Of a stretch of 64,000 nucleotides of DNA, positions 17,258 through 29,279 are shown one piece after another (positions within the stretch are counted from its first letter, which is position 1; each line of letters begins with the position of its first letter). Origin of the DNA: an uncultured delta proteobacterium. GTDB lineage: Bacteria; Myxococcota_A; Polyangia; Polyangiales; Polyangiaceae. The notes beneath the pieces were generated by a model. It had not been told where the DNA came from, did no database searches, and saw only the letters and a list, made by a program, of their open reading frames with translations. Made by a program: the position numbers and the translations under genes. The stretch covers positions 1,280,001-1,344,000 of the forward strand of contig CAWJCS010000003.1 of the NCBI GenBank assembly GCA_963841435.1, read 5' to 3'.

Positions 17258-19043
17258 TCAGCGCTCGCCCTCGAGGTCCACGGTGCTGGCGAACTCGCGG
17301 TAAAGGGCCGCGTAGTGGCCACCCTTCGCCAAGAGCTCGTGATGGTCACCCCGCTCGACGATACGACCCTGATCGAGCACCAGGACCTGGTCGGCGTGGC
17401 GCACCGTGCTCAGCCGGTGGGCGACGACGAAGCTCGTGCGACCCGCGAGCAGTCGAACGAGAGCCGCCTGCACCCGTGCCTCCGTCACGGTGTCGACCGA
17501 GCTCGTCGCTTCGTCGAGCAAGAGGATGCGAGGATTGGCGAGCATGGCGCGCGCGAAGCAGACGATCTGGCGCTGCCCCAGCGAAAGGCCGCTCCCTCGC
17601 TCGCCGACCTGGGTTTCGAGACCGTCCGGCAAGCCCTCGAGCAGGTCGAGCACGTCGAGCGAGCGCGCCGCCTCACGGACCTCGGAAAGCGATGCTCCCG
17701 GCCTTCCGAGTCGGATGTTGTCCGCGACGCTGCCGGTGAACACGAAGTTTGCCTGCGTTACGCTCGCGATCTGGCGGCGTAGTGACCGGCTCGTCACGCC
17801 GGCGATGTCCCGCCCGTCGACCAGAATCGTGCCGCTCGTCGGTAGATAGAGCTTGGCGACGAGGCTCATGAGCGTGCTCTTGCCGCCGCCCGTCGGGCCG
17901 ACGAGTGCCAGCGTCTGACCGGGCCCTGCCGCGAGCGACACGTGGTCGAGCACGCGCCGACCGGGTTCGTACTCGAACACGACATCGCGAAGCTCGACGC
18001 GCCCCTCGACGGGCGGCAGCTCGGCGGCGCCCGGGGCGTCGCGGAAGTCGGGTGGCTGGTCGAGCAGGGCGAAGACCCGCTCGGCGCCGGCCATGGCCGC
18101 GAGCGCCTGGTTGTACTGGTTGCCGAGCATGGGAATCGCGCCGAAGAAGGCGTTCGACAGGAAGAGGAAGGCGATGAGCGCGTCGAGCGGCACGTGGCCG
18201 GCGAGCGCCTGGTAGCCGCCGACCACGAGCAAGATGGCCAAAAACAGTTGCCCATTGAGCTCGAGCAGCGGCTGGAACACGGCAGCCTGCTTGGCGGCGC
18301 CGAAGTTGTAGCGAGAATGGTCGAAAATGAGCTGGGCGAACAATTCGCCGTTGAGCCCCTGCCGCACGAAGCTCTGGATCTCGCGGATGCCGGTGACGCT
18401 CTCGGCGAGCCGCGCCGTCACACGGCTGAAGCTCTCCTGCTGCGCTCGGTAGGCGCGGCTGAGACCGAGCCGGAAGTAGCGCACGAGCCCCCAAAGGATG
18501 GGCGCCATCGCGAGCACCACCAGAAAGAGCTGCCAGTCGTAGTAAAGCATCATGGCCGCCGAGATCAGCAGATTGCCCAGCTGAACGGTGCTGACGAACG
18601 CCACGTCTTGCACGCCGACGCGCACAACGTCGACGTCAGAGGTGATGCGGCCGAGCAGGCGACCGATCGGCGTGCGCCGAAAGAACGCCATCTGCATCGT
18701 CAGCAGGTGCGCGTAGATCTCGTTTCTCAAGTCGTGGACGACGGCTTCTCCGAGCTCGAGCGCCAGTCGCGAGCGATACACGAAGCAGATCTCCGTCACG
18801 ACGACGAGGGCAAGGAGCCCCGTGACACCACGCACGATGCCGGGTGCGTCCTGGTGCGCGATGGGTCCGCTGATGACGCGGGCGGTCGCCCAGGTGACGA
18901 ACGGCAGCTGGATGGAGCGCACGACGACCAGAAAAAATAGCCAGTTTCGCAGCCGCCGGTGCGGGCGCGTGTAGCCGAGCAAGCGCCGGATGATGGCCGC
19001 TTCGAGCGGACGCTGGTTGAACGCTCCGGGGCGGGCGTTTCAC
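17258..19043 (-). CDS. ABC exporter subunit (TMD + NBD); start probably GTG 19043 with an extra A
   Basis: GPTGGGKST, LSLGQRQ, ILLLDEATS, AHRLST; the frame continues upstream (NQRPLEAAIIRRLL) to the preceding stop. Confidence 0.88.
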
Positions 19044-20900
19044 GCGCGCACCCCCCGGCCCTCGAGCAGGCTCTGGCTCTCGGGGTCCGCAATCTGTAGG
19101 GCGGCGTTTTCGAAGTACAGCCCTCGCCGTCGCATGAGCTGTTCGTGCGTGCCGTCCTCGACGAGCCGCCCCCGGTCGAGCACGACGATGCGCTCGGCGC
19201 GCCGGAGCGTCGACAGACGGTTGGCGACGAGGAGCGTCGTGCGACCGCGCCGCGCGCCGTCGATGGCATCGAGGATCTCCGTCTCGGTCCTCGCGTCCAC
19301 GGCCGTCGTGGGGTCGTCGAGCAGCAGGATGGGCGGATCGGCGAGCACGGCGCGCGCGATGGCGAGGCGCTGTCGTTGTCCCCCGGAAAGATTGCCCGCG
19401 CCCTCCTCGAGGAGCGTGTCGTAACCTTCGGGAAGGCGCGCCACGAATTCGTGAGCCCCGGCGAGCCGCGCTGCCGCCTCGATGCGCTCCCGGCTCGCGC
19501 CCGGCAGGCCGAACGCGACGTTTTCCGCCACCGTGGCGCGGAAAAGCAGGCTCTCTTGGAAGACCAGGCCCACCTGCCGCCGCAGGCAGTCGAGGTCGAG
19601 CGACCTCACGTCGAAGCCCCCGACTTTCACGCTGCCGGCGGTGGCGTCGAAGAAGCGCGGTACGAGCCCGAGCAGCGTGCTCTTGCCGGCGCCCGTCGCG
19701 CCGAGGATCGCGACGCAGGTCCCGGGCTCGATCCGAAGATCGATGTCGGAAAGCACGTCGCCTGAGCCATAGCGGAACGACACGTGCAATAGCTCGATGC
19801 TGCCCTCTAGGCGCTCACGCACGACCGGCGACGGCGGGCTCTTCACGTCGAGCGGCGCGTCGAGCACCTCGAACACGCGCTCTGCGCCACTCAGGCTCTG
19901 TTGCAGCGTATTGACGATGCCGGCCGCGCTCGCCACCTGCGCCGAGAACTGCTGCAGGAGCCCCGCGAACACGATGAGCTCACCCAGTGAGAGCACGCCG
20001 CGCACGACGAGCGTACCGCCGTACGAAAGCAGCACGGCAACGTTCAGCTGAGAAATGAAGCCGATCGTGGGACTGAAGCGCGAAACGCGCACGAACAGCG
20101 AGTGCTGCGCCGTGCGCACCTCGCGGTTGCGCTCGCGAAAGCGCGCCATCTCCTCCGGCTCGCGCCCGAACACCTTCACGACGAGCATGCCGCGGATGCC
20201 CTCGGCCATCGCCAGAAGCAGGCGGTCGGCGAGCTCGCGCACGTGGAGGTAGCCCGGGCGCACGAGCCGCGAGAAGCGCACCGTCACGAACCACAAGAGC
20301 GGGGTGAGCGCGAGGCACACGAACGTCAAAGCGACGTGCGTGCGCAGCATGTAGACGAGGTAGAGGCCCAGCGAGAGCACCATGATCAGCCCTTGCAGGA
20401 GCACCCCGTCGACGAACGAGCGCACGGACTGCACGTCGCCCGTGACGCGATTGATGATCGAGCCGCTCGCGTTGTCGTCGAAGAAGCGGAAGCTGAGACG
20501 CTGGAGCTTGTCGAACACCCGCGTGCGGAGCTCGGGCACGAGACGGAGGTGCACGAGCTTACCGACCGTGCTGGAATACGCGTACGAAAGCAGCGTACGC
20601 ACGAGCGCCATCCCCAGCACGGCCGCGCCGAGGGCGAGGAGCGTCCGCTCGACACCGAAGCTCTCGGGCGGCGCGACACCGAGCGGCCAGCGCGGAGCCG
20701 GAGAGCCGGGCCTGAGCGCTTTGCGGACGATGTCAACGGCGACGCCGCTCAGACCGAGACCCGTCACGCCGAGCGCGAGCAACGCGACCTGGGTCGCGAA
20801 AATCGTGATGCACTCGCGGGGATAGTCGAAAGCTCAGGGCGAGGAGGCGCCTCACGAGCCCGGCGCTTTCGCTTTCGCGGGGGGCTCCGGGGTCTGACAT
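19040..20900 (-). CDS. ABC exporter subunit (TMD + NBD), degenerate-site partner; frameshift near 20830
   Basis: GATGAGKST, LSGGQRQ, LLLDDPT (D in place of the catalytic E), ANRLST (N in place of H), the pattern of heterodimeric exporters. ATG at 20900 joins the ORF if one T is removed. Confidence 0.88.
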
Positions 20901-20960: not shown

Positions 20961-20989
20961 TTGCCGAAGGTCGGGCGCTGGATTATTCT
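20961..20989 (+). promoter_or_regulatory. Putative sigma70-type promoter for the DAHP synthase leader
   Basis: TTGCCG-N17-TATTCT. Confidence 0.65.
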
Positions 20990-20996
20990 GAAGTTC

Positions 20997-21074
20997 GTGA
21001 GTTCGGTGCATCGTTTCTATTGGTTCGGCTATTGGCCCGCGGACACGCGGTGCCCAGGGTCGAGCCCCGGCTAG
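20997..21074 (+). CDS. Aromatic-amino-acid-rich attenuator leader peptide (MSSVHRFYWFGYWPADTRCPGSSPG)
   Basis: GTG-started 25-codon ORF with F-Y-W-F-G-Y-W, between a promoter and a terminator in front of DAHP synthase. Confidence 0.75.
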   Translation: MSSVHRFYWFGYWPADTRCPGSSPG

Positions 21075-21095
21075 AACACGAAGCTGCCGAAAGTC

Positions 21096-21136
21096 GAAAC
21101 CCCTGGTCGCCGCAAGCGCCCGGGGGTTTTTCGTTT
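21096..21136 (+). terminator. Intrinsic terminator / attenuator upstream of DAHP synthase
   Basis: AAACCCCTGG...CCGGGGGTTT hairpin followed by TTCGTTT; its 5' arm is complementary to CCAGGGT in the leader ORF. Confidence 0.75.
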
Positions 21137-21150
21137 AGGGACCCCTTTTC

Positions 21151-22222
21151 ATGCACGAAACCAAGAACCTTCGCATCGTCGATACCACCTTGCTTCAGAG
21201 CCCGGAGACCATCACGACCGAGATCCCCCTCACCCCGAGGGCGGCCGACGTCGTGGTGCGCGCGCGGCGCGAGGTCGAGGCGACAATCCTGGGCAAGAGC
21301 CCCAAGCCCATCGTGATCGTCGGGCCTTGCTCGATTCACGACCCCGAGGCCGCCATCGACTACGCCACGCGCCTGGTTCGACTGCGCGAGCGCGTTTCCG
21401 ACGCGCTCACCGTGATCATGCGCGTCTACTTCGAGAAGCCGCGCACCACGGTCGGCTGGAAGGGGCTCATCAACGATCCGCACCTGAACGGCACGTTCGA
21501 CATCCCGACGGGCATTCGGCGCGCCCGCTCGTTGCTACGCGATCTCGCCGAGCTCGGGATGCCCGCCGCCACGGAGCTGCTCGACCCAATCATCCCGCAG
21601 TACATCGCGGATCTCGGTTTCCTGGGCCGCCATCGGCGCGCGAACCACGGAGAGCCAGACCCACCGCGAGATGGCGAGCGGCCTCTCGATGCCGGTCGGC
21701 TTCAAGAATGGCACGGACGGCTCCTTCGGCGTCGCCATCAACGCCATGCTCGCGGCCGCGCAAGCCCACAGTTTTCTGGGCATCGACGCGCTCGGCCGCG
21801 TGAGCGTCGTACGAACGGCGGGCAACCCTCACACGCACCTCGTGCTGCGCGGCGGCGCGAGCGGACCGAACTACGACGCGGCAGCCGTGGCCCGGGCCGT
21901 GGAAGCGCTCGGCCGCGCGCACGTGACACCGCGCGTGCTCGTCGATGCGAGCCACGACAACAGCCAGAAAAATCACGAGCGCCAGACGGAGGTGTTGGCC
22001 GAGGTGGGTCGGCAGTGGCGCGCGCCGTCGCCCCACGTGATGGGCGTCATGATCGAGAGCAACCTCGTGGCCGGCCGTCAGGATCTCAGGCACGGCGAGC
22101 GGCTCGCCTACGGACAGAGCATCACGGATGCGTGCGTCAACTTTGCGACGACCGAGCAGGCGCTGCTCACCCTCGCCGAAGACGCGGCTCGGCGCAATCT
22201 TCCCGTGGCAGCGGCCGGCTGA
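21151..22222 (+). CDS. 3-deoxy-7-phosphoheptulonate (DAHP) synthase, class I-alpha (AroF/G/H type); frameshift near 21617
   Basis: VGPCSIHD, MRVYFEKPRTTVGWKGLINDP; after the shift AIGARTTESQTHREMASGLSMPVGFKN, DASHDNS, YGQSITDAC. Confidence 0.93.
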
Positions 22223-22268
22223 GCGGTTCCTGCTCGACTGGCGCGCCGTTTCGGGCCAAAAACCGGAG

Positions 22269-23795
22269 ATGCGCTGGAGCGCCCGGGCACGCCTCGTACC
22301 GCTTTGGCTTTGCGGCGCCCTCGCTGCGTGCGCCAACGACGCGAGCGAATCACCGGGCGGCTCGGGCGGCACGCCGAGCGGCGGAGCGGCGGGCACCGCG
22401 GCGGCGGGTACGGCGGGCGCGCCCGGTGGCGGCGCCGGAACCGCGAGCGGTGGCGGCGCGGGAGTAGGCGCCGCGGGCTCGAGCAGCGGCGGCAGCGCGG
22501 CGACGGGCGGCGCGGGTGCAGGCGGGGCAGGCGCGAGCGGCGGGGCGGGCGCAGGCGCCGCGGGCAGCGCGGGTCTCGGCGGCAACGCGGGCGGCGCGGG
22601 CACGGCGGGCGCGGGAGCTGGAACTGGTGGCGGCGCGGGAGACGCCGGAGCGGCCGGCATGCCGGGCATCGCGATCCCGCGGGCCGGGCGCTGTGCGGCG
22701 CCGAGCGGTGCGCTCGTGAGTGACGCACGCGCTGCGTACGACAAGTGGAAGGCCGATCTCGTGTGGTCGGACGGCGCGAACGGCGCGCTACGCGTGCGTC
22801 GCCCGGATTCGAACGGGGCCGAGGTCAATTCGACGGTCTCCGAAGGCATCGCGTACGGCATGCTCGCCGCGGTCACGATGGACGACCAGACGACCTTCGA
22901 CCAATTCTGGCGCTATTCCCAGCAGTGGCTCGACGGGAACGGTCTGATGAACTGGTACATCAACGCCGCCGGCACCCAGGCGCTCGGCACGGGTGCGGCG
23001 AGCGACGCCGACGAGGACATCGCGTTCGCACTGCTGCTCGCCGACGCGCGCTGGGGCGGCAGCGGCAGCCTTTCCGACAGCTATGCCACGCTCGCGGCAA
23101 AGCAGATCGACGCGATCTGGCAGCACGAGGTCGACCACGGCAGAAACGACGTGCTCACGCCCGGGGACCAGTTCGCCGACGGCTCGGTTATCAACATTTC
23201 CTACTTTGCCCCGGCGTTCTATCGGGCGTTCGGACGCGCGACGAACCAAGAGGCCAACTGGACGGGGGTCGTCAACGCGAGCTACGACGCCATCGAGGCG
23301 GCGCTCAACGCCACCAACGGGAATCAAGACAACGGGCTGGTCCCAGCCTGGTCCACGCCGGCCGGCGTCCCCCAGACTCCCCCGAACACGAGCCACCCGA
23401 TCCACCACCAGCTCGACTCCTGTCGGACGCCCTACCGTCTCGCGCAGGATTACTGCTGGAACGGCGAGCCACGCGCGCTTGCCTACCTCGAGAAGATTGG
23501 CTCGTTTTACGCCACGGTGGGCGCCATGAACATCGTGGACGGCTACGACCTCGACGGGACGCCGCACCCGCAGTTCGCGTCCGTCGGCAATCAGTCCGCC
23601 GCCTTCGTGGGCACGGCGGCAGTGGGCGCCATGGCGACGCCGGCGTTCGCCCAGCTGCGCGACGAAGCGTACGCCGAGGTGGCGACACTCACGCTCTTCG
23701 CGGGCAGCACGTACTACAACGAGTCGTGGACGGTGCTCTCGCTCGTCATGCTAACGGGCATGATGGACGACTTGACGCTCGGGCCCGAGCCCTGA
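22269..23795 (+). CDS. Glycoside hydrolase family 8 lipoprotein with Gly/Ala-rich linker
   Basis: Lipobox LAAC; TVSEGIAYGMLAAV, ASDADEDIAFALL, NISYFAP, YYNESW. Confidence 0.85.
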   Translation: MRWSARARLVPLWLCGALAACANDASESPGGSGGTPSGGAAGTAAAGTAGAPGGGAGTASGGGAGVGAAGSSSGGSAATGGAGAGGAGASGGAGAGAAGSAGLGGNAGGAGTAGAGAGTGGGAGDAGAAGMPGIAIPRAGRCAAPSGALVSDARAAYDKWKADLVWSDGANGALRVRRPDSNGAEVNSTVSEGIAYGMLAAVTMDDQTTFDQFWRYSQQWLDGNGLMNWYINAAGTQALGTGAASDADEDIAFALLLADARWGGSGSLSDSYATLAAKQIDAIWQHEVDHGRNDVLTPGDQFADGSVINISYFAPAFYRAFGRATNQEANWTGVVNASYDAIEAALNATNGNQDNGLVPAWSTPAGVPQTPPNTSHPIHHQLDSCRTPYRLAQDYCWNGEPRALAYLEKIGSFYATVGAMNIVDGYDLDGTPHPQFASVGNQSAAFVGTAAVGAMATPAFAQLRDEAYAEVATLTLFAGSTYYNESWTVLSLVMLTGMMDDLTLGPEP

Positions 23796-23854: not shown

Positions 23855-25723
23855 TCACGCTCCGTCGAGCGCGGTCCGCACGGCACGCGCGAGGTCGTCG
23901 GGCAGGTAGGGTTTCGACAGGAAATTCACGCCGGCGTCGACGATACCGTGGTGCACGATGGTGTTCTCCGCGTAGCCCGACGTATAGAGCACCCGGAGCC
24001 CGGGGCGTACCTTGAGTAGGCGATCGGCGAGCTCCTTGCCGGTCATCCTCGGCATCACGAGGTCCGTGACGAGAAGCGCTACCTCGTTCTTCTCGAACAG
24101 GGAGAGCGCTTCGTGGGGGTCGCCCGTGTCGAGGACGCGATACCCGTGCGCAGCCAGGATTCGACCCGCAACCCGTCGCACCATCGCGTCGTCCTCGACC
24201 ATCAGGACGGTCTCTTGCCCGCCTGGCGAGGGCGCTTTCAGCTGAGCGGGTCGCGGCGCTTCGACCTTGATCACGCGCGGCAGGTACACCTTGAAACAAC
24301 TGCCCCTTCCGACCTCGCTGTACACGGAGATGGTGCCGCCACCTTGCTTCACGATGCCGTAGCAAGTGGCCAGTCCGAGACCGGTACCCTTGCCGGGCGC
24401 CTTCGTCGTGAAGAACGGCTCGAAGATGTGCTGCAGCGTCGCGGCGTCGATGCCGAGACCCGTGTCGCTGACACTCAGCATGACGTAGTCACCCGGCGCG
24501 ACCTCGGGATGCAACCCAACGTAGCTCTCGTCGAGCGTCACGTTGCGCGTCTCGAGCGTGAGCACGCCTCCACGTTCCATGGCGTCGCGCGCGTTCACGA
24601 TCAGGTTCACGACCACTTGCTCGATGCGACCGGGGTCGGCGCTCACGATGCCGAGGCCGGCGCCACACTCGGTGACGAGCTGGATGTGCTCGCCGATCAG
24701 GCGCCGCAACATCCGGTCGAGATTTTTGACGAGCTCGTTGAGGTCGAGGGGCCGGGGCTCCACGATCTGGCGTCGCGCAAACGCGAGGAGCTGTTGCGTG
24801 AGCTCGGAGGCCCGCTCGGCCGCCGAGCGGATTTGTCCGAGATCGTCACGTAGCTGGGCACTGGCGGCCGACAAACCCAGGAGATCGACCACGGACAAGA
24901 TCACGGTCAAGAGGTTGTTGAAGTCGTGCGCGACACCTCCCGCGAGCCGCCCGACGCTTTCCATGCGCTGTGCCTGCCGGAGCTGCTCTTCGAGGCTACG
25001 CCGAGCCGAAATGTCCCGGAGCGCCGTCACGCGCAGGCGGCGCTCACCGAGAAGGAGCGTCTTTCCCTGTGCCTCGACCGGGAACGTCGTGCCGTCGGCG
25101 CGGCGCGCCATGTGCTCGTACAAGCCCTCCGCTCCCGAGCGAATGTGCGCTTCCACCTTGCTTCGGCTTTCGGGTGCGACAAATTCCATCACCGGCTTGC
25201 CAATGAGATCCTCGCGCGACACGCCGAGGAGGCTGGCGAGCTGCTGGTTCACCTCGACGACGAGGCCCTGCTCGGTGATTCCGATCCCCTCGAATGCCGC
25301 TTCCGAGAGCTTGCGAAAACGCTCCTCGCTCTCCCTCAGCGACTGCTCGGCCGCCTGGCGCTCGCCGATGTCCCGCGCCACGACGCAGAGTAGCGTCCTT
25401 CCGTCAACCACTGTGCGCCCGATCCGCACGTCGACGCTGATGAGCGAGCCGTCGTGGCGCCGCAGCGGACGCGTTCCCAGTGCGATTTCACCCGTGCGCA
25501 GAACCTCGTCGGCGCGCGCCCGCATGACGTCGCTCGACAACGTCACGACCTGCTCGAGCGGAAGGTCGGCGACCTCCGCGGGCGAATACCCGAGCTGCTG
25601 GCAAAACGCCTGGTTCGCCGTGATGACGCTGAGCGTCGTGGGATCGACGAGGACCACGACATCGGTCTCCAGCGACATCACCGCCGCCCCCAGAAAGCGA
25701 AGATAGTCGTCCGCGCCGCTCAC
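23855..25723 (-). CDS. Hybrid sensor histidine kinase (2 PAS - HisKA - HATPase - receiver)
   Basis: GGVAHDFNNLL, NARDAM, FEPFFTTK, GTGLGL; receiver VEDD...TDLVMP...SKP. Confidence 0.93.
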   Translation of the reverse strand: MSGADDYLRFLGAAVMSLETDVVVLVDPTTLSVITANQAFCQQLGYSPAEVADLPLEQVVTLSSDVMRARADEVLRTGEIALGTRPLRRHDGSLISVDVRIGRTVVDGRTLLCVVARDIGERQAAEQSLRESEERFRKLSEAAFEGIGITEQGLVVEVNQQLASLLGVSREDLIGKPVMEFVAPESRSKVEAHIRSGAEGLYEHMARRADGTTFPVEAQGKTLLLGERRLRVTALRDISARRSLEEQLRQAQRMESVGRLAGGVAHDFNNLLTVILSVVDLLGLSAASAQLRDDLGQIRSAAERASELTQQLLAFARRQIVEPRPLDLNELVKNLDRMLRRLIGEHIQLVTECGAGLGIVSADPGRIEQVVVNLIVNARDAMERGGVLTLETRNVTLDESYVGLHPEVAPGDYVMLSVSDTGLGIDAATLQHIFEPFFTTKAPGKGTGLGLATCYGIVKQGGGTISVYSEVGRGSCFKVYLPRVIKVEAPRPAQLKAPSPGGQETVLMVEDDAMVRRVAGRILAAHGYRVLDTGDPHEALSLFEKNEVALLVTDLVMPRMTGKELADRLLKVRPGLRVLYTSGYAENTIVHHGIVDAGVNFLSKPYLPDDLARAVRTALDGA

Positions 25724-25777
25724 CGGGGCAGTGTCTTCTGCAGGTCCTCGGCGTCAAGCACGTGCCCCTCCTGTCGC

Positions 25778-28700
25778 TCAGTTCAGTCGGATCTCCGATC
25801 CCACCTCGGCACGCTGACGCCGCGCCCTGCTCACGGTTGCGGCGTGGATCGGATCGGCCCCGATCGTGCCCTCGAGCGCCGTCAGGTACTCCTCGGCGCT
25901 CACGCGCTCGAGCTCTCGCTCGGCGAAGACCAGGCGCTCCTCGATGCCGAGCCGCAGCGCTTCTTCGCGATGGCCTGGGCGCGTCAAGAACTCGCGCAGC
26001 GCGTGCACGTGGCGTGTCCAGAGCTCGAACGTCCCTCTCTTGCTTCACGAGTAACCGTTCAGCGTACCAGTCGCTGCCGAGCAATGCCTCGCGCATGAAC
26101 ATCGCGCGCACGTCCGGATGCCGCGCGTCTTTGCCCTCGAAATGGCCGTGAAGCATGATGTGGAGCAGCGCGCGTACCGGCGGACAAGCATCTTCGACAC
26201 TGCCGTCCTTGAAGTAGGCGGCGGCGACGCGGCGCTGAGCGTCGACGATGTTGTCGACGCCGTCGGCGAACACATCGAGGTCCTGCTGCTCCGGGCGCAG
26301 AATCTCTTCGCTGAAAACGCTGCCCGGGTTGTCGAACACTCGTCCGAAGAAGGTGTGCACGAACTTGTCGGTGATGCGATAGCCGAGCCGACTCGCGAGC
26401 ACGCGCCGTCCGCCATGGTCGAAATCCTCGACTCGCTCGAGATGCCCTTCGGCGATGAGCCGCTCGGGGTCGCGTTCGCGCGGGAACAGCCGGCACCAGA
26501 GCTCGGGCACGAGCAGGCTGATGTCGTGATCGAAACGATAGTGCGGGCCGATCCAGCCTGCCGCCGAGCTGAAGCCCGCGTAGTCGCACAGGATCATCGA
26601 AACGAGCGCGTTGTTGAGGTCGGCCGTCGCGCAGAGCGCGTTGAAGGGTCCCTTCGTGAGCGCGCCTTCCGTCCCCGCGCCGGTCGTGCTCGGGGACTTG
26701 CCCGTCACGGAACAGATGTAGTCCATGAAGAGCTCTGGCAGCTCCTGATAGTGAATCGGCCCGTACACGCAGAGCGGCTTGATGGCGCCGTCGGGCGGAT
26801 TGTTGCGCCGCCCCGAGAGCACGCTGATCACGGGGAACACCACGGGCTCCTCGATGGGGATCTTGCGGCTCAGGCGCGCGCCCATGTCCGCCACGTAGCG
26901 ATCGATCGGTCGCGACGCGTCCGGGCGCGTCTGCAGGTAGCGCGGGTTCTTGCTGGGCTTGCCGCCGACCAGGCGCGGCCGCGCGGAGCAGATCGAGTAG
27001 CCGGGACCGCGCGCACCGTTGTACCCGAGGTGCTTGCGCATCGGCTCCGTGAACGCGTCGAACAGGGCCACCTCCTCGACGATGTTCAGGACGTCAGCCT
27101 GCCCGAGCGGCTGGAAGTTCGAACAGAAGAGACCCGGCGAAGCCATGTCCGACTCCGTCTGCTTGTCGAAGCCCGGGTGAATGGCCTCGTCGGGGCGCTG
27201 GAACAGCCGCCACTCGCAATTTTCGGCAATTTTCAAGCTGGGATGGCCGTCGTACTCCTTGGGCAGCCCCAAGAGAGCCGTCGCGGGAACCACGGTCGAG
27301 GCACTGATGTCGTCCTCCATCTGCACCTTGTCGGCCGCGACGAAATCCTGGCGCAGCTTGTACGTGCGCCACGCACCGTTCTCCTCCAGACCGATCCGGA
27401 GGTAGCTGCCAACGAGCTTGCGCTTGTCGTACTTGAGCTCGTGGCCGGGAGCCCCGTTGATGATGTCGACGCTGAAGTGCCGCTGCCAGTCGTCGCCCCA
27501 ATCGGCGCGATAGAAGCGCTTGATCACGAACACGAGCGCGCGGATGTGCTGCGGCAGGCTCTCGACCCAAGCGTTGTGCTCTGCCGCGTAGTCCGAGCTC
27601 GGCGTGAGTAGCTTGATCACCGAGCCGAGCGAGCGCTCCTGCGAAAGAATCGGCCGACTGCTGCGCGAGTCCTCGTGCCCATCGGGGTAAAATTCCCGCT
27701 TCAAGATCGAGTTGACGAGCTCGAGATCAGCCTTCAAATTCTGTACGAGGATGGGTCCATAGAGCACGGCATCGCTCAGGCTCTTGCTGATCTCGGACTT
27801 TCCTCCACCCGACACCGTGCACGGCTTGTGACAGAACGTCCCCTCGGGCACGGTGCCCACGAGGCGGTAGCTCGGCGCCGCCGGGTGCTTCTCCAGGCGG
27901 ATTTTGTAGCCGTTCGGCAGGATGTACACGTGCCCCGGCAGGAGCTTCAGCCGCGCCTCGTCGTCGCCGCGCGCCCACTTCACCACCTGCTTCTTGACGT
28001 CGAAATCGGAGTCCTCGGGCACGTAGTGGATCTGGGGGTAGAGCCGGTCGGTGGCGTAGCCCGACGCGTGAAGATCCACCCGATCTCCGAGAAGCTCGAG
28101 CGCGTCGGTGAAACGGTGCTCGGCGGCGATGTGACGGCCGTCCGGCGCGTAGCCGTCGCCGTGGCTCACGGTCGAGAACGCGAGGGCCCCACCGGCGTGC
28201 TCCTCCTCGGCGAGACCGTAGAGGTTCGCGCTGTAGCTGATCTGCGTCTTTACCTCTTTCTTGCAGTAGCCGAAGTAGTTGTCAGCGAGGATCGTCACCA
28301 TCACGCCGCGCTCGCTACGCGCCGTGATCTTGAAGGGGCTGCCGCCGTTGTACGGCTCGCTCTCGTCCGACCAGCACATGCCGTTCGCGCGCTGCTCTTC
28401 GGTTGCCTCGCTCGCGTGAGGCAGGCCGAGATCCTTCTTCTTGAGGCGCGTGAGATGCGGCGCGAGGATCACGCAGCCGGTGTGTCCGGTCCACCTCTCG
28501 ACGTCGAGGCCCGCATCGTTCTCGGGTAGGTACGGATCGCCCCAATTGCCGAAGATGCTCTCGACGAAATCGAGATTCGACACGAGGCCGCCCGGCGCAA
28601 AAAAGCGCACTTCGAGCCGTTTCTCGCTCGAGAGCCGCGGCACGGCGGGGCAGACGAGCGGGCGCAAGAGCAGCGAAACCATGGTCTCCACGGGCTCGTC

Positions 28701-29279
28701 CCAGCCGGAGCTGAACGGCAGGCGCAAAAGATGCGCCGGCGGCCTGAACGCCTCCCGCAGCATGCGCGCGTACGCCACGAGCGGCACGGCCACCTTGTCC
28801 CCCGGTACCGGCAGGCCCACCTGTGCGACGTGGAAGACACCCTGCGTCGTGCGTCTGTCGTTGAGCGGATTGTGGAGCACGCCGTTGTCGAGGCGGTAGC
28901 TCGTGACGACCTCGTTGTGCCAGTGGTCCGCGTCGATCGGCAGCGAGAGCTCGCGCGCGAGCCCGTAGCGATCGAGAATGAAGGTCCCGGAAGGAATGCG
29001 GAGCTCGGGCTCGTCCGGAAGCTCTCTAAACAGGTCGTCGAGAAAATCTTTGACGCGGCGATCGGTGGGGCAGAGGTGATCGCTGAGCAAGCGGCTCTGC
29101 TCGCGAAAACGCGCGAACAGATCGCGCCCCAGATCGAGCACCTCGGTATCGCCGACGTGCCTCGGCACGCGAAATCCCATCGCCGCGAGCTTGAGCACGA
29201 TGGAGCGGATGACCACGCGGCGGTCGGGGACCGCCATTTGCCCGTCCCCCCTGAGACCAACCTGTCGCTCGAGATCCAT
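25778..29279 (-). CDS. Probable PPi-dependent phosphoenolpyruvate carboxykinase; frameshift near 26028
   Basis: ~1160 aa after correction; LHNPLNDRRTTQGVFH, NYFGYCKKEVKTQISY, EEEHAGGA, HKPCTVSGGGKSEISK, GKSPSTTGAGTEGALTKGPFN. The C-terminus continues in ORF 25778..26008. Confidence 0.8.

Follow-up and report, generated by a model that had tools for sequence, protein, structure and literature searches.

A predicted leader-peptide attenuator with phenylalanine, tyrosine and tryptophan codons upstream of a type Iα DAHP synthase gene in Polyangiales

The short region between a promoter and a type Iα DAHP synthase gene in an uncultured myxobacterium of the order Polyangiales very probably encodes an aromatic, ribosome-mediated attenuator of transcription, of the same type as trpL and pheL, which would control the enzyme gene. 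It lies within the window, a stretch of 64,000 nucleotides of contig CAWJCS010000003.1 whose numbering we use throughout. The original prediction, made from the letters of the window, had proposed such an attenuator, and this reading is now strongly supported by conservation among relatives, by variation at the level of codons and by the geometry of the ribosome footprint. Phenylalanine, tyrosine and tryptophan are the end products of the pathway that DAHP synthase opens, and the match between these end products and the codons of the leader counts in favour of the attenuator. The leader is a Polyangiales family missing from Rfam, where a search at E ≤ 10 gave five matches, the best of 17.6 bits and none of them to Phe_leader, Trp_leader, a T-box or a riboswitch. 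The features of the region are as follows.

20961..20966, plus strand: −35 box TTGCCG (family consensus TTGCG).
20984..20989, plus strand: −10 box TATTCT, with a 17-nt spacer from the −35 box.
20997..21074, plus strand: leader ORF of 25 codons, from GTG 20997 to TAG 21072-21074, with no room for a Shine-Dalgarno site.
21015..21035, plus strand: control codons F-Y-W-F-G-Y-W, six of them aromatic and two of these Trp.
21034..21054, plus strand: 1:2 hairpin, 21034-21041 with 21046-21054, predicted by folding the window leader.
21047..21113, plus strand: antiterminator 2:3, 21047-21063 with 21094-21113, predicted by folding and duplex tests.
21068-21074 with 21084-21089, plus strand: inner antiterminator stem, spanning the leader stop codon.
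21096..21136, plus strand: intrinsic-terminator-like hairpin 3:4 (21096-21130) with a T-tract (21127-21136).
21151..22222, plus strand: type Iα DAHP synthase gene (aroF/G/H family), ATG at 21151, frame split near 21616.

The promoter (TTGCCG-N17-TATTCT, 20961-20989), the 25-codon ORF with its aromatic cluster and the GC hairpin with a T-tract ahead of the DAHP synthase start were all borne out at the places first proposed for them. The antiterminator that had been drawn is also predicted, as a longer pairing than the one originally given. At the genomic aromatic frequency of 6.9%, at least six aromatic codons among seven would arise with P = 7e-7 per position. This genome has 1083 short ORFs preceded by TANNNT at a distance of 6-14 nt; 12 of them are rich in aromatic codons, and the DAHP synthase leader is the only one of the 12 with a terminator downstream. 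The leader region has a folding z of −3.8, and none of 200 shuffles folded as well; a strict consensus scanner for promoters and terminators returned 0 of each in the same region. Two other start codons were considered for the leader ORF and rejected. An in-frame TTG at 20961, which would give an ORF of 37 codons, coincides with the −35 box, and relatives show stops or other frames there; GTG 21006 was set aside because the first GTG, at 20997, is homologous in position to the leader starts of the nearest relatives.

The aromatic-rich upstream ORF proposed from this one sequence proved to be conserved ahead of orthologous genes. Orthologues at 68% identity or more are held by 34 of 36 genomes of the same genus, and the other two, both incomplete, hold a distant paralogue only. 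The full leader precedes 33 of these 34 orthologues, and the remaining one (L021), cut by a contig end, keeps the 3′ half; counting a further member of the genus (L135), 34 of 35 same-genus orthologues have a complete leader. A search across the order was followed up at its 30 best loci; 23 of these were new and came from other genera, 15 with the leader ORF and eight lacking it, and two additional leaders (L036 and L049) came from family f3. The leader thereby ranges over 11 genera of Polyangiales, six of family f1 and five of family f3. Detection required four aromatics per ten codons and did not require Trp; the counts include one row from an unpublished genome (G033), on which no claim depends alone. 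In a FastTree phylogeny of 135 proteins, from which L049 was left out, one DAHP synthase clade (support 90) has 50 members, of which 47 carry the leader; the members without a counted leader are the contig-cut L021, L142 and the copy on contig C5 of this genome. These leader-bearing homologues are kin and not independent cases.

Within this genome, no further leader copies were found by blastn, and the next best match of model R1 scored 21.5 bits; the leader is absent before both type Iα paralogues (C5 and C6), and none was seen by eye before one anthranilate-synthase-like locus and three PDT loci. When R1 was run on 150 other genomes of the phylum, a sample containing few genomes with a leader-clade gene, 21 gave matches, all at or below 36.6 bits and mostly to the terminator only, and none of 29 match loci fetched from these genomes had a DAHP synthase match. 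An 18-nt codon pattern searched in 401 genomes of the class matched about as often as its reversed control; 30 of the matching loci were fetched, and no leader of the family was among them.

Of 52 leaders, 43 have an ORF of 23-26 codons. Every one of the 52 contains Tyr, and 49 contain all three aromatic residues, the other three having Phe and Tyr only; this retention of Trp in 49 of 52 compares with a genomic Trp frequency of 1.2%. Across 36 leaders anchored on a core motif, an anchor that makes the central Trp invariant by construction, the third positions of Arg and Tyr/Phe codons vary (47%) and the first positions are nearly fixed. Phe and Tyr interchange among relatives at the control-codon positions. 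Within the genus the motif R-x-F-W-F-G-Y-W is strongly conserved, whereas outside it the order and spacing of the aromatic codons are free to vary, and the C-terminal half of the ORF is kept as RNA pairing rather than as peptide. TTT makes up 98 of 145 leader Phe codons (68%) against 16% in the long genes of this genome, and TAT 42 of 84 leader Tyr codons (50%) against 13%, figures that are descriptive as the leaders are related. The wobble-read TTT and TAT codons may tune the sensitivity of the leader.

Covariation of the hairpins, which the original prediction had suggested as a check, was stronger for the terminator than for the antiterminator. In the terminator 87.9% of cells are paired and four of 11 pairs show two-sided changes, which beats all slid controls (best 54%). 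RNAalifold, applied to 46 leaders, returned just five terminator pairs because of one-base register shifts. In the antiterminator, compensation was counted for 15 of 34 deviant cells, chiefly from distant genera, and one subclade retains an uncompensated change; in a MAFFT alignment two of six pairs show two-sided change, and a slide of −3 yields 78% pairing with a covariation score above that of the unslid helix. Covariation of the antiterminator is only modest. At least four T among the eight bases past the G-run were found in 46 of 48 leaders, although the tracts are short, with 3-5 T of eight in 31 of 48. Two of the 52 leaders (L147 and L150) have no U-tailed terminator. These longer leaders, about 226 nt before the gene, contain two aromatic clusters as well as stable hairpins close to the start codon, and are possibly a translational or Rho-dependent variant.

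The position of the control codons relative to the pairing segments was examined by simulation of the window leader, with a transcript ending at 21116 and a 12-nt mask from the A-site codon onwards. In silico, the antiterminator forms completely, at −34 kcal/mol or better, with the A-site on any aromatic codon from F21015 to W21033. Past the last Trp it falls away over the next four codons (−30, −22, −21 and −14 kcal/mol), reaching −2 kcal/mol at the stop. Partial transcripts without the terminator 3′ arm were compared over 35 leaders. With a ribosome placed on either the first or the last aromatic codon, segment 3 pairs mostly upstream in 33 of them; the count is nine with a ribosome at the stop, and with no ribosome it is already 19. 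Even when the ribosome is stalled, the full-length leader at equilibrium favours the terminator in 32-35 of 35, and the switch therefore has to be kinetic and co-transcriptional. Of 50 leaders, 40 have an antiterminator duplex that starts 12-16 nt past the first base of the final control codon, and in 40 the duplex outscores 95 or more of 100 shuffles. In 38 of the 50, the duplex with its own partner exceeds the mean obtained with partners from foreign species. The inner stem across the stop codon is better than shuffles in 27 of 48.

We propose that RNA polymerase would start at the leader start codon or a few bases before it, as the promoter spacing suggests, and that a ribosome would initiate without a Shine-Dalgarno site and trail the polymerase. 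A shortage of charged Phe-, Tyr- or Trp-tRNA would stall this ribosome in the seven-codon cluster, where it would cover segment 1 and leave segment 2 free. Segment 2 could then pair with the terminator 5′ arm before the 3′ arm is synthesised, allowing read-through into the DAHP synthase gene. With all three aromatics plentiful, the ribosome would move over segment 2 to the stop, the terminator would form and the transcript would end near 21136. The folding suggests that the 1:2 hairpin would mask the start of the antiterminator strand. The geometry of this scheme is computed in silico; the transcription start, translation, stalling, termination and the effective amino acids are what we infer. 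A search with PF01371 found no TrpR in this genome, which is 95% complete.

The enzyme gene was assigned through an intact orthologue (L003), which scores 478 bits against TIGR00034 (aroFGH; cut-off 173), also passes the PRK12755 cut-off and matches type Iα DAH7P synthases in the PDB. Both pieces of the window gene exceed the PF00793 cut-off. They are split by one extra base near 21616, a frameshift on which the original prediction was silent. Frame splits also affect the sole alanyl-tRNA synthetase match of the assembly (G000:C6:681085) and two PDT matches on C4, and on these grounds the frameshift is read as an assembly indel and is probably an assembly error. Among the sequencing runs listed as containing this genome none was of RNA; two soil DNA runs with small shares of it gave no listed piece across the frameshift or over the leader ORF, and an estimate of the frameshift rate from relatives' ORFs gave two of eight, from too few loci.

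The alternatives to a three-amino-acid attenuator differ in how much of the scheme they keep. The nearest would retain the attenuator and make only one or two amino acids effective, most likely Phe or Phe with Trp, the other codons being passengers. It draws on the aroR leader of Corynebacterium glutamicum (F-Y-F), which in the available text of PMC11802643 answers Phe and not Tyr, and on the three leaders that do without Trp. Against it, all six aromatic codons of the window leader fall inside the computed antitermination window, Tyr is universal, and Trp is kept far above its genomic frequency. On this balance of sequence evidence we lean slightly towards a real response to each of Phe, Tyr and Trp, and regard the passenger-codon alternative as possible but less probable. 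Alternatively, the peptide itself might act, either as a ligand-dependent arrest peptide, of which TnaC is one, or in trans like peTrpL, with no sensing of tRNA. The strong conservation of the motif within the genus fits such a role, and leader peptides can work in trans according to the available part of PMC10117765. However, the aromatic order and spacing vary freely outside the genus, Phe and Tyr interchange, and the C-terminal half is conserved as pairing; moreover, a stalled ribosome would switch the gene on, as suits starvation rather than excess. An acting peptide is thus an improbable explanation of the family.

We judge it similarly improbable that the hairpins act on translation initiation of the enzyme gene or on mRNA decay instead of on termination. 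The short T-tracts would suit such a role, as would L147 and L150, but in 48 leaders the hairpin ends 20-87 nt upstream of the ATG (median 30) and SD-like sites lie downstream of the T-tract, a spacing that favours termination over occlusion of the ribosome-binding site. What would dispense with regulation altogether is a chance ORF followed by a constitutive terminator or a small RNA, in front of a decaying gene. The frameshift in this assembly and the second gene copy of the same clade that has no leader in this genome both point that way. Yet the leader is conserved over 11 genera with intact genes, and the frame-split alanyl-tRNA synthetase and PDT matches suggest assembly indels. This last explanation, the least credible of all, is largely refuted by conservation and coding-type substitution, and the attenuator of the trpL/pheL type stands as the preferred reading.

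The leader had also been described as leaderless, and this was found to fit the window copy better than its relatives. A TTG-anchored promoter was located upstream of 45 of the 52 leaders. TTGC is present in 35 of 35 aligned leaders, although these had been excised with a TTGC pattern, and the T and A of the −10 box are kept at the constant 17-nt spacing in at least 90% of the 35. The usual distance from −10 to +1 is 6-8 nt, so that a strictly leaderless start lies about 6-8 nt past the −10 box. In the window copy the gap is 7 nt, with no room for a ribosome-binding site, whereas among the 45 promoter-bearing leaders it is 6-8 nt in six and 9-14 nt in 39; for most leaders, therefore, the predicted 5′ UTR is a few bases long. 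SD-like words within 16 nt of the leader start were found in five of 52, and the starts are 34 ATG and 18 GTG. Near-leaderless and SD-less would be the safer description of the family. TANNNT is enriched 6-12 nt ahead of ATG and GTG starts genome-wide. It often has TTG(C) 17 nt earlier, and a rough count puts several hundred ORFs above background. From these patterns, genes with no leader or a very short one look to be an ordinary and common class in this genome and lineage. The 52 leaders, with gaps of 6-14 nt, offer a natural series for studies of SD-less initiation.

This genome has three type Iα DAHP synthase genes, in the window, on C5 and on C6, which weakens the contrast that had been drawn with the three isoenzymes of E. 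coli. The C5 copy (L134, G000:C5:549548) belongs to the leader clade, has an upstream region free of the leader and follows ORFs resembling a small membrane protein and an oxidoreductase; it may be transcribed from another promoter. We compared the enzymes at positions that we take to be the feedback residues of E. coli AroG, numbered D6, S211 and K214. All 48 leader-clade enzymes compared have no Asp at D6, no Lys at K214 and Gly at S211, and the leader-free C6 paralogue keeps D, D, S and K. Gly at the S211 position is also present in 50 of 72 leader-less enzymes, and 15 leader-bearing enzymes of other phyla mostly retain D6 and K214; a loss of allosteric feedback in the leader-clade enzymes is thus offered only as a hypothesis. 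The wider proposal, that the near-leaderless leader acts as a three-input OR gate on the charging of Phe-, Tyr- and Trp-tRNA and replaces allosteric feedback of the enzyme, is speculative and in our view rather unlikely as a whole.

Several neighbouring genes were noted in passing. Two ABC transporter permease/ATPase genes (17258-20782, minus strand) are divergent from the leader promoter, and such a divergent neighbour is also present at L003 at least. Downstream, an ORF with a Gly/Ala-rich linker (22128-23795, plus strand) weakly matches the BcsZ endoglucanase family, at E 2.5e-14 and under the cut-off. In an ORF of 1263 codons (25488-29279, minus strand) the last ~110 residues look out of frame, possibly through an assembly indel.

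In E. coli, trpL and pheL sense one amino acid each, ahead of terminal-branch operons and with SD-led initiation. The Polyangiales leader differs in having control codons for three amino acids, the first enzyme of the pathway as its probable target and no Shine-Dalgarno site. Another attenuator leader without a ribosome-binding site is reportedly that of C. glutamicum ilvB. With trpL and pheL the Polyangiales leader shares the 1:2, 2:3 and 3:4 architecture, control codons placed just before segment 2 and a U-tailed terminator. The mechanism of trpL and pheL is summarised in PMC11802643. A close precedent is aroR, which attenuates aroF in C. glutamicum with a response to Phe and none to Tyr, according to the parts of PMC4046766 and PMC11802643 available. 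There too a short ORF of aromatic codons precedes a DAHP synthase gene and stalling raises transcription; the F-Y-F of aroR contains no Trp, and the F-Y-W-F-G-Y-W leader, with two, is set apart by its composition. In Acholeplasma the uORFC-13-1 motif (Brewer 2021, PMC8632094, available text) likewise consists of a predicted upstream ORF and intrinsic terminator before aroF, but it has a ribosome-binding site, is described with at least one Phe codon and belongs to another phylum. The predicted initiation without a Shine-Dalgarno site is shared with trpL/rnTrpL of Sinorhizobium meliloti, a leaderless attenuator ORF whose transcript starts exactly at the AUG (PMC10117765, available text); that leader has another amino acid and target, and most Polyangiales copies are predicted to carry a 5′ leader of a few bases.

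Novelty, which the original prediction had implied, is therefore confined to part of the arrangement. Leader-peptide control of DAHP synthase had already been published for aroR-aroF and uORFC-13-1; what is new is the Polyangiales family with Trp added, which could read all three amino acids by a mechanism that is textbook. Full-text searches of the literature yielded no myxobacterial or Trp-containing DAHP synthase leader, although Vitreschak 2004, Lopatovskaya 2010 and supplements may list some, and there is no such leader in the available text of PMC10117765, PMC2965389, PMC11109978, PMC4833913 and PMC2659441.

Aromatic leader ORFs were also picked by eye at 15 of 77 DAHP synthase loci from outside Polyangiales, in Bradyrhizobium, Mesorhizobium, Dyella, Paenalcaligenes, Arthrobacter, Microbacterium and two MAGs. 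Thirteen of the 15 were scored with model R1, eight of them at 10-18 bits and five with no match. They sit on other enzyme clades and are therefore separate sequence families, which suggests a repeated origin of the device. One such second family (L081, L083, L098, L100, L105, L111, L125, L127, L117, L079 and L116), from Bradyrhizobium, Mesorhizobium, Dyella, Paenalcaligenes and two MAGs, lies about 180-220 nt before the gene and combines a Y/F/W cluster with a U-tract hairpin; it is testable in cultured model rhizobia. The Arthrobacter and Microbacterium loci (L070, L115, L112 and L119) share a conserved R-W-Y-A-Y-F leader ORF and hairpins, with no clear U-tract.

The aroR leader is the only experimentally tested DAHP synthase leader that we found in the literature, in the parts available, and it answers Phe alone. 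A leader that keeps Trp, Phe and Tyr over 11 genera would allow a clean experiment on whether a single attenuator integrates signals from three tRNAs, and the family, absent from Rfam, would be a useful addition to annotation. For the Polyangiales myxobacteria, it provides a concrete and testable candidate for where entry into the shikimate pathway may be controlled.
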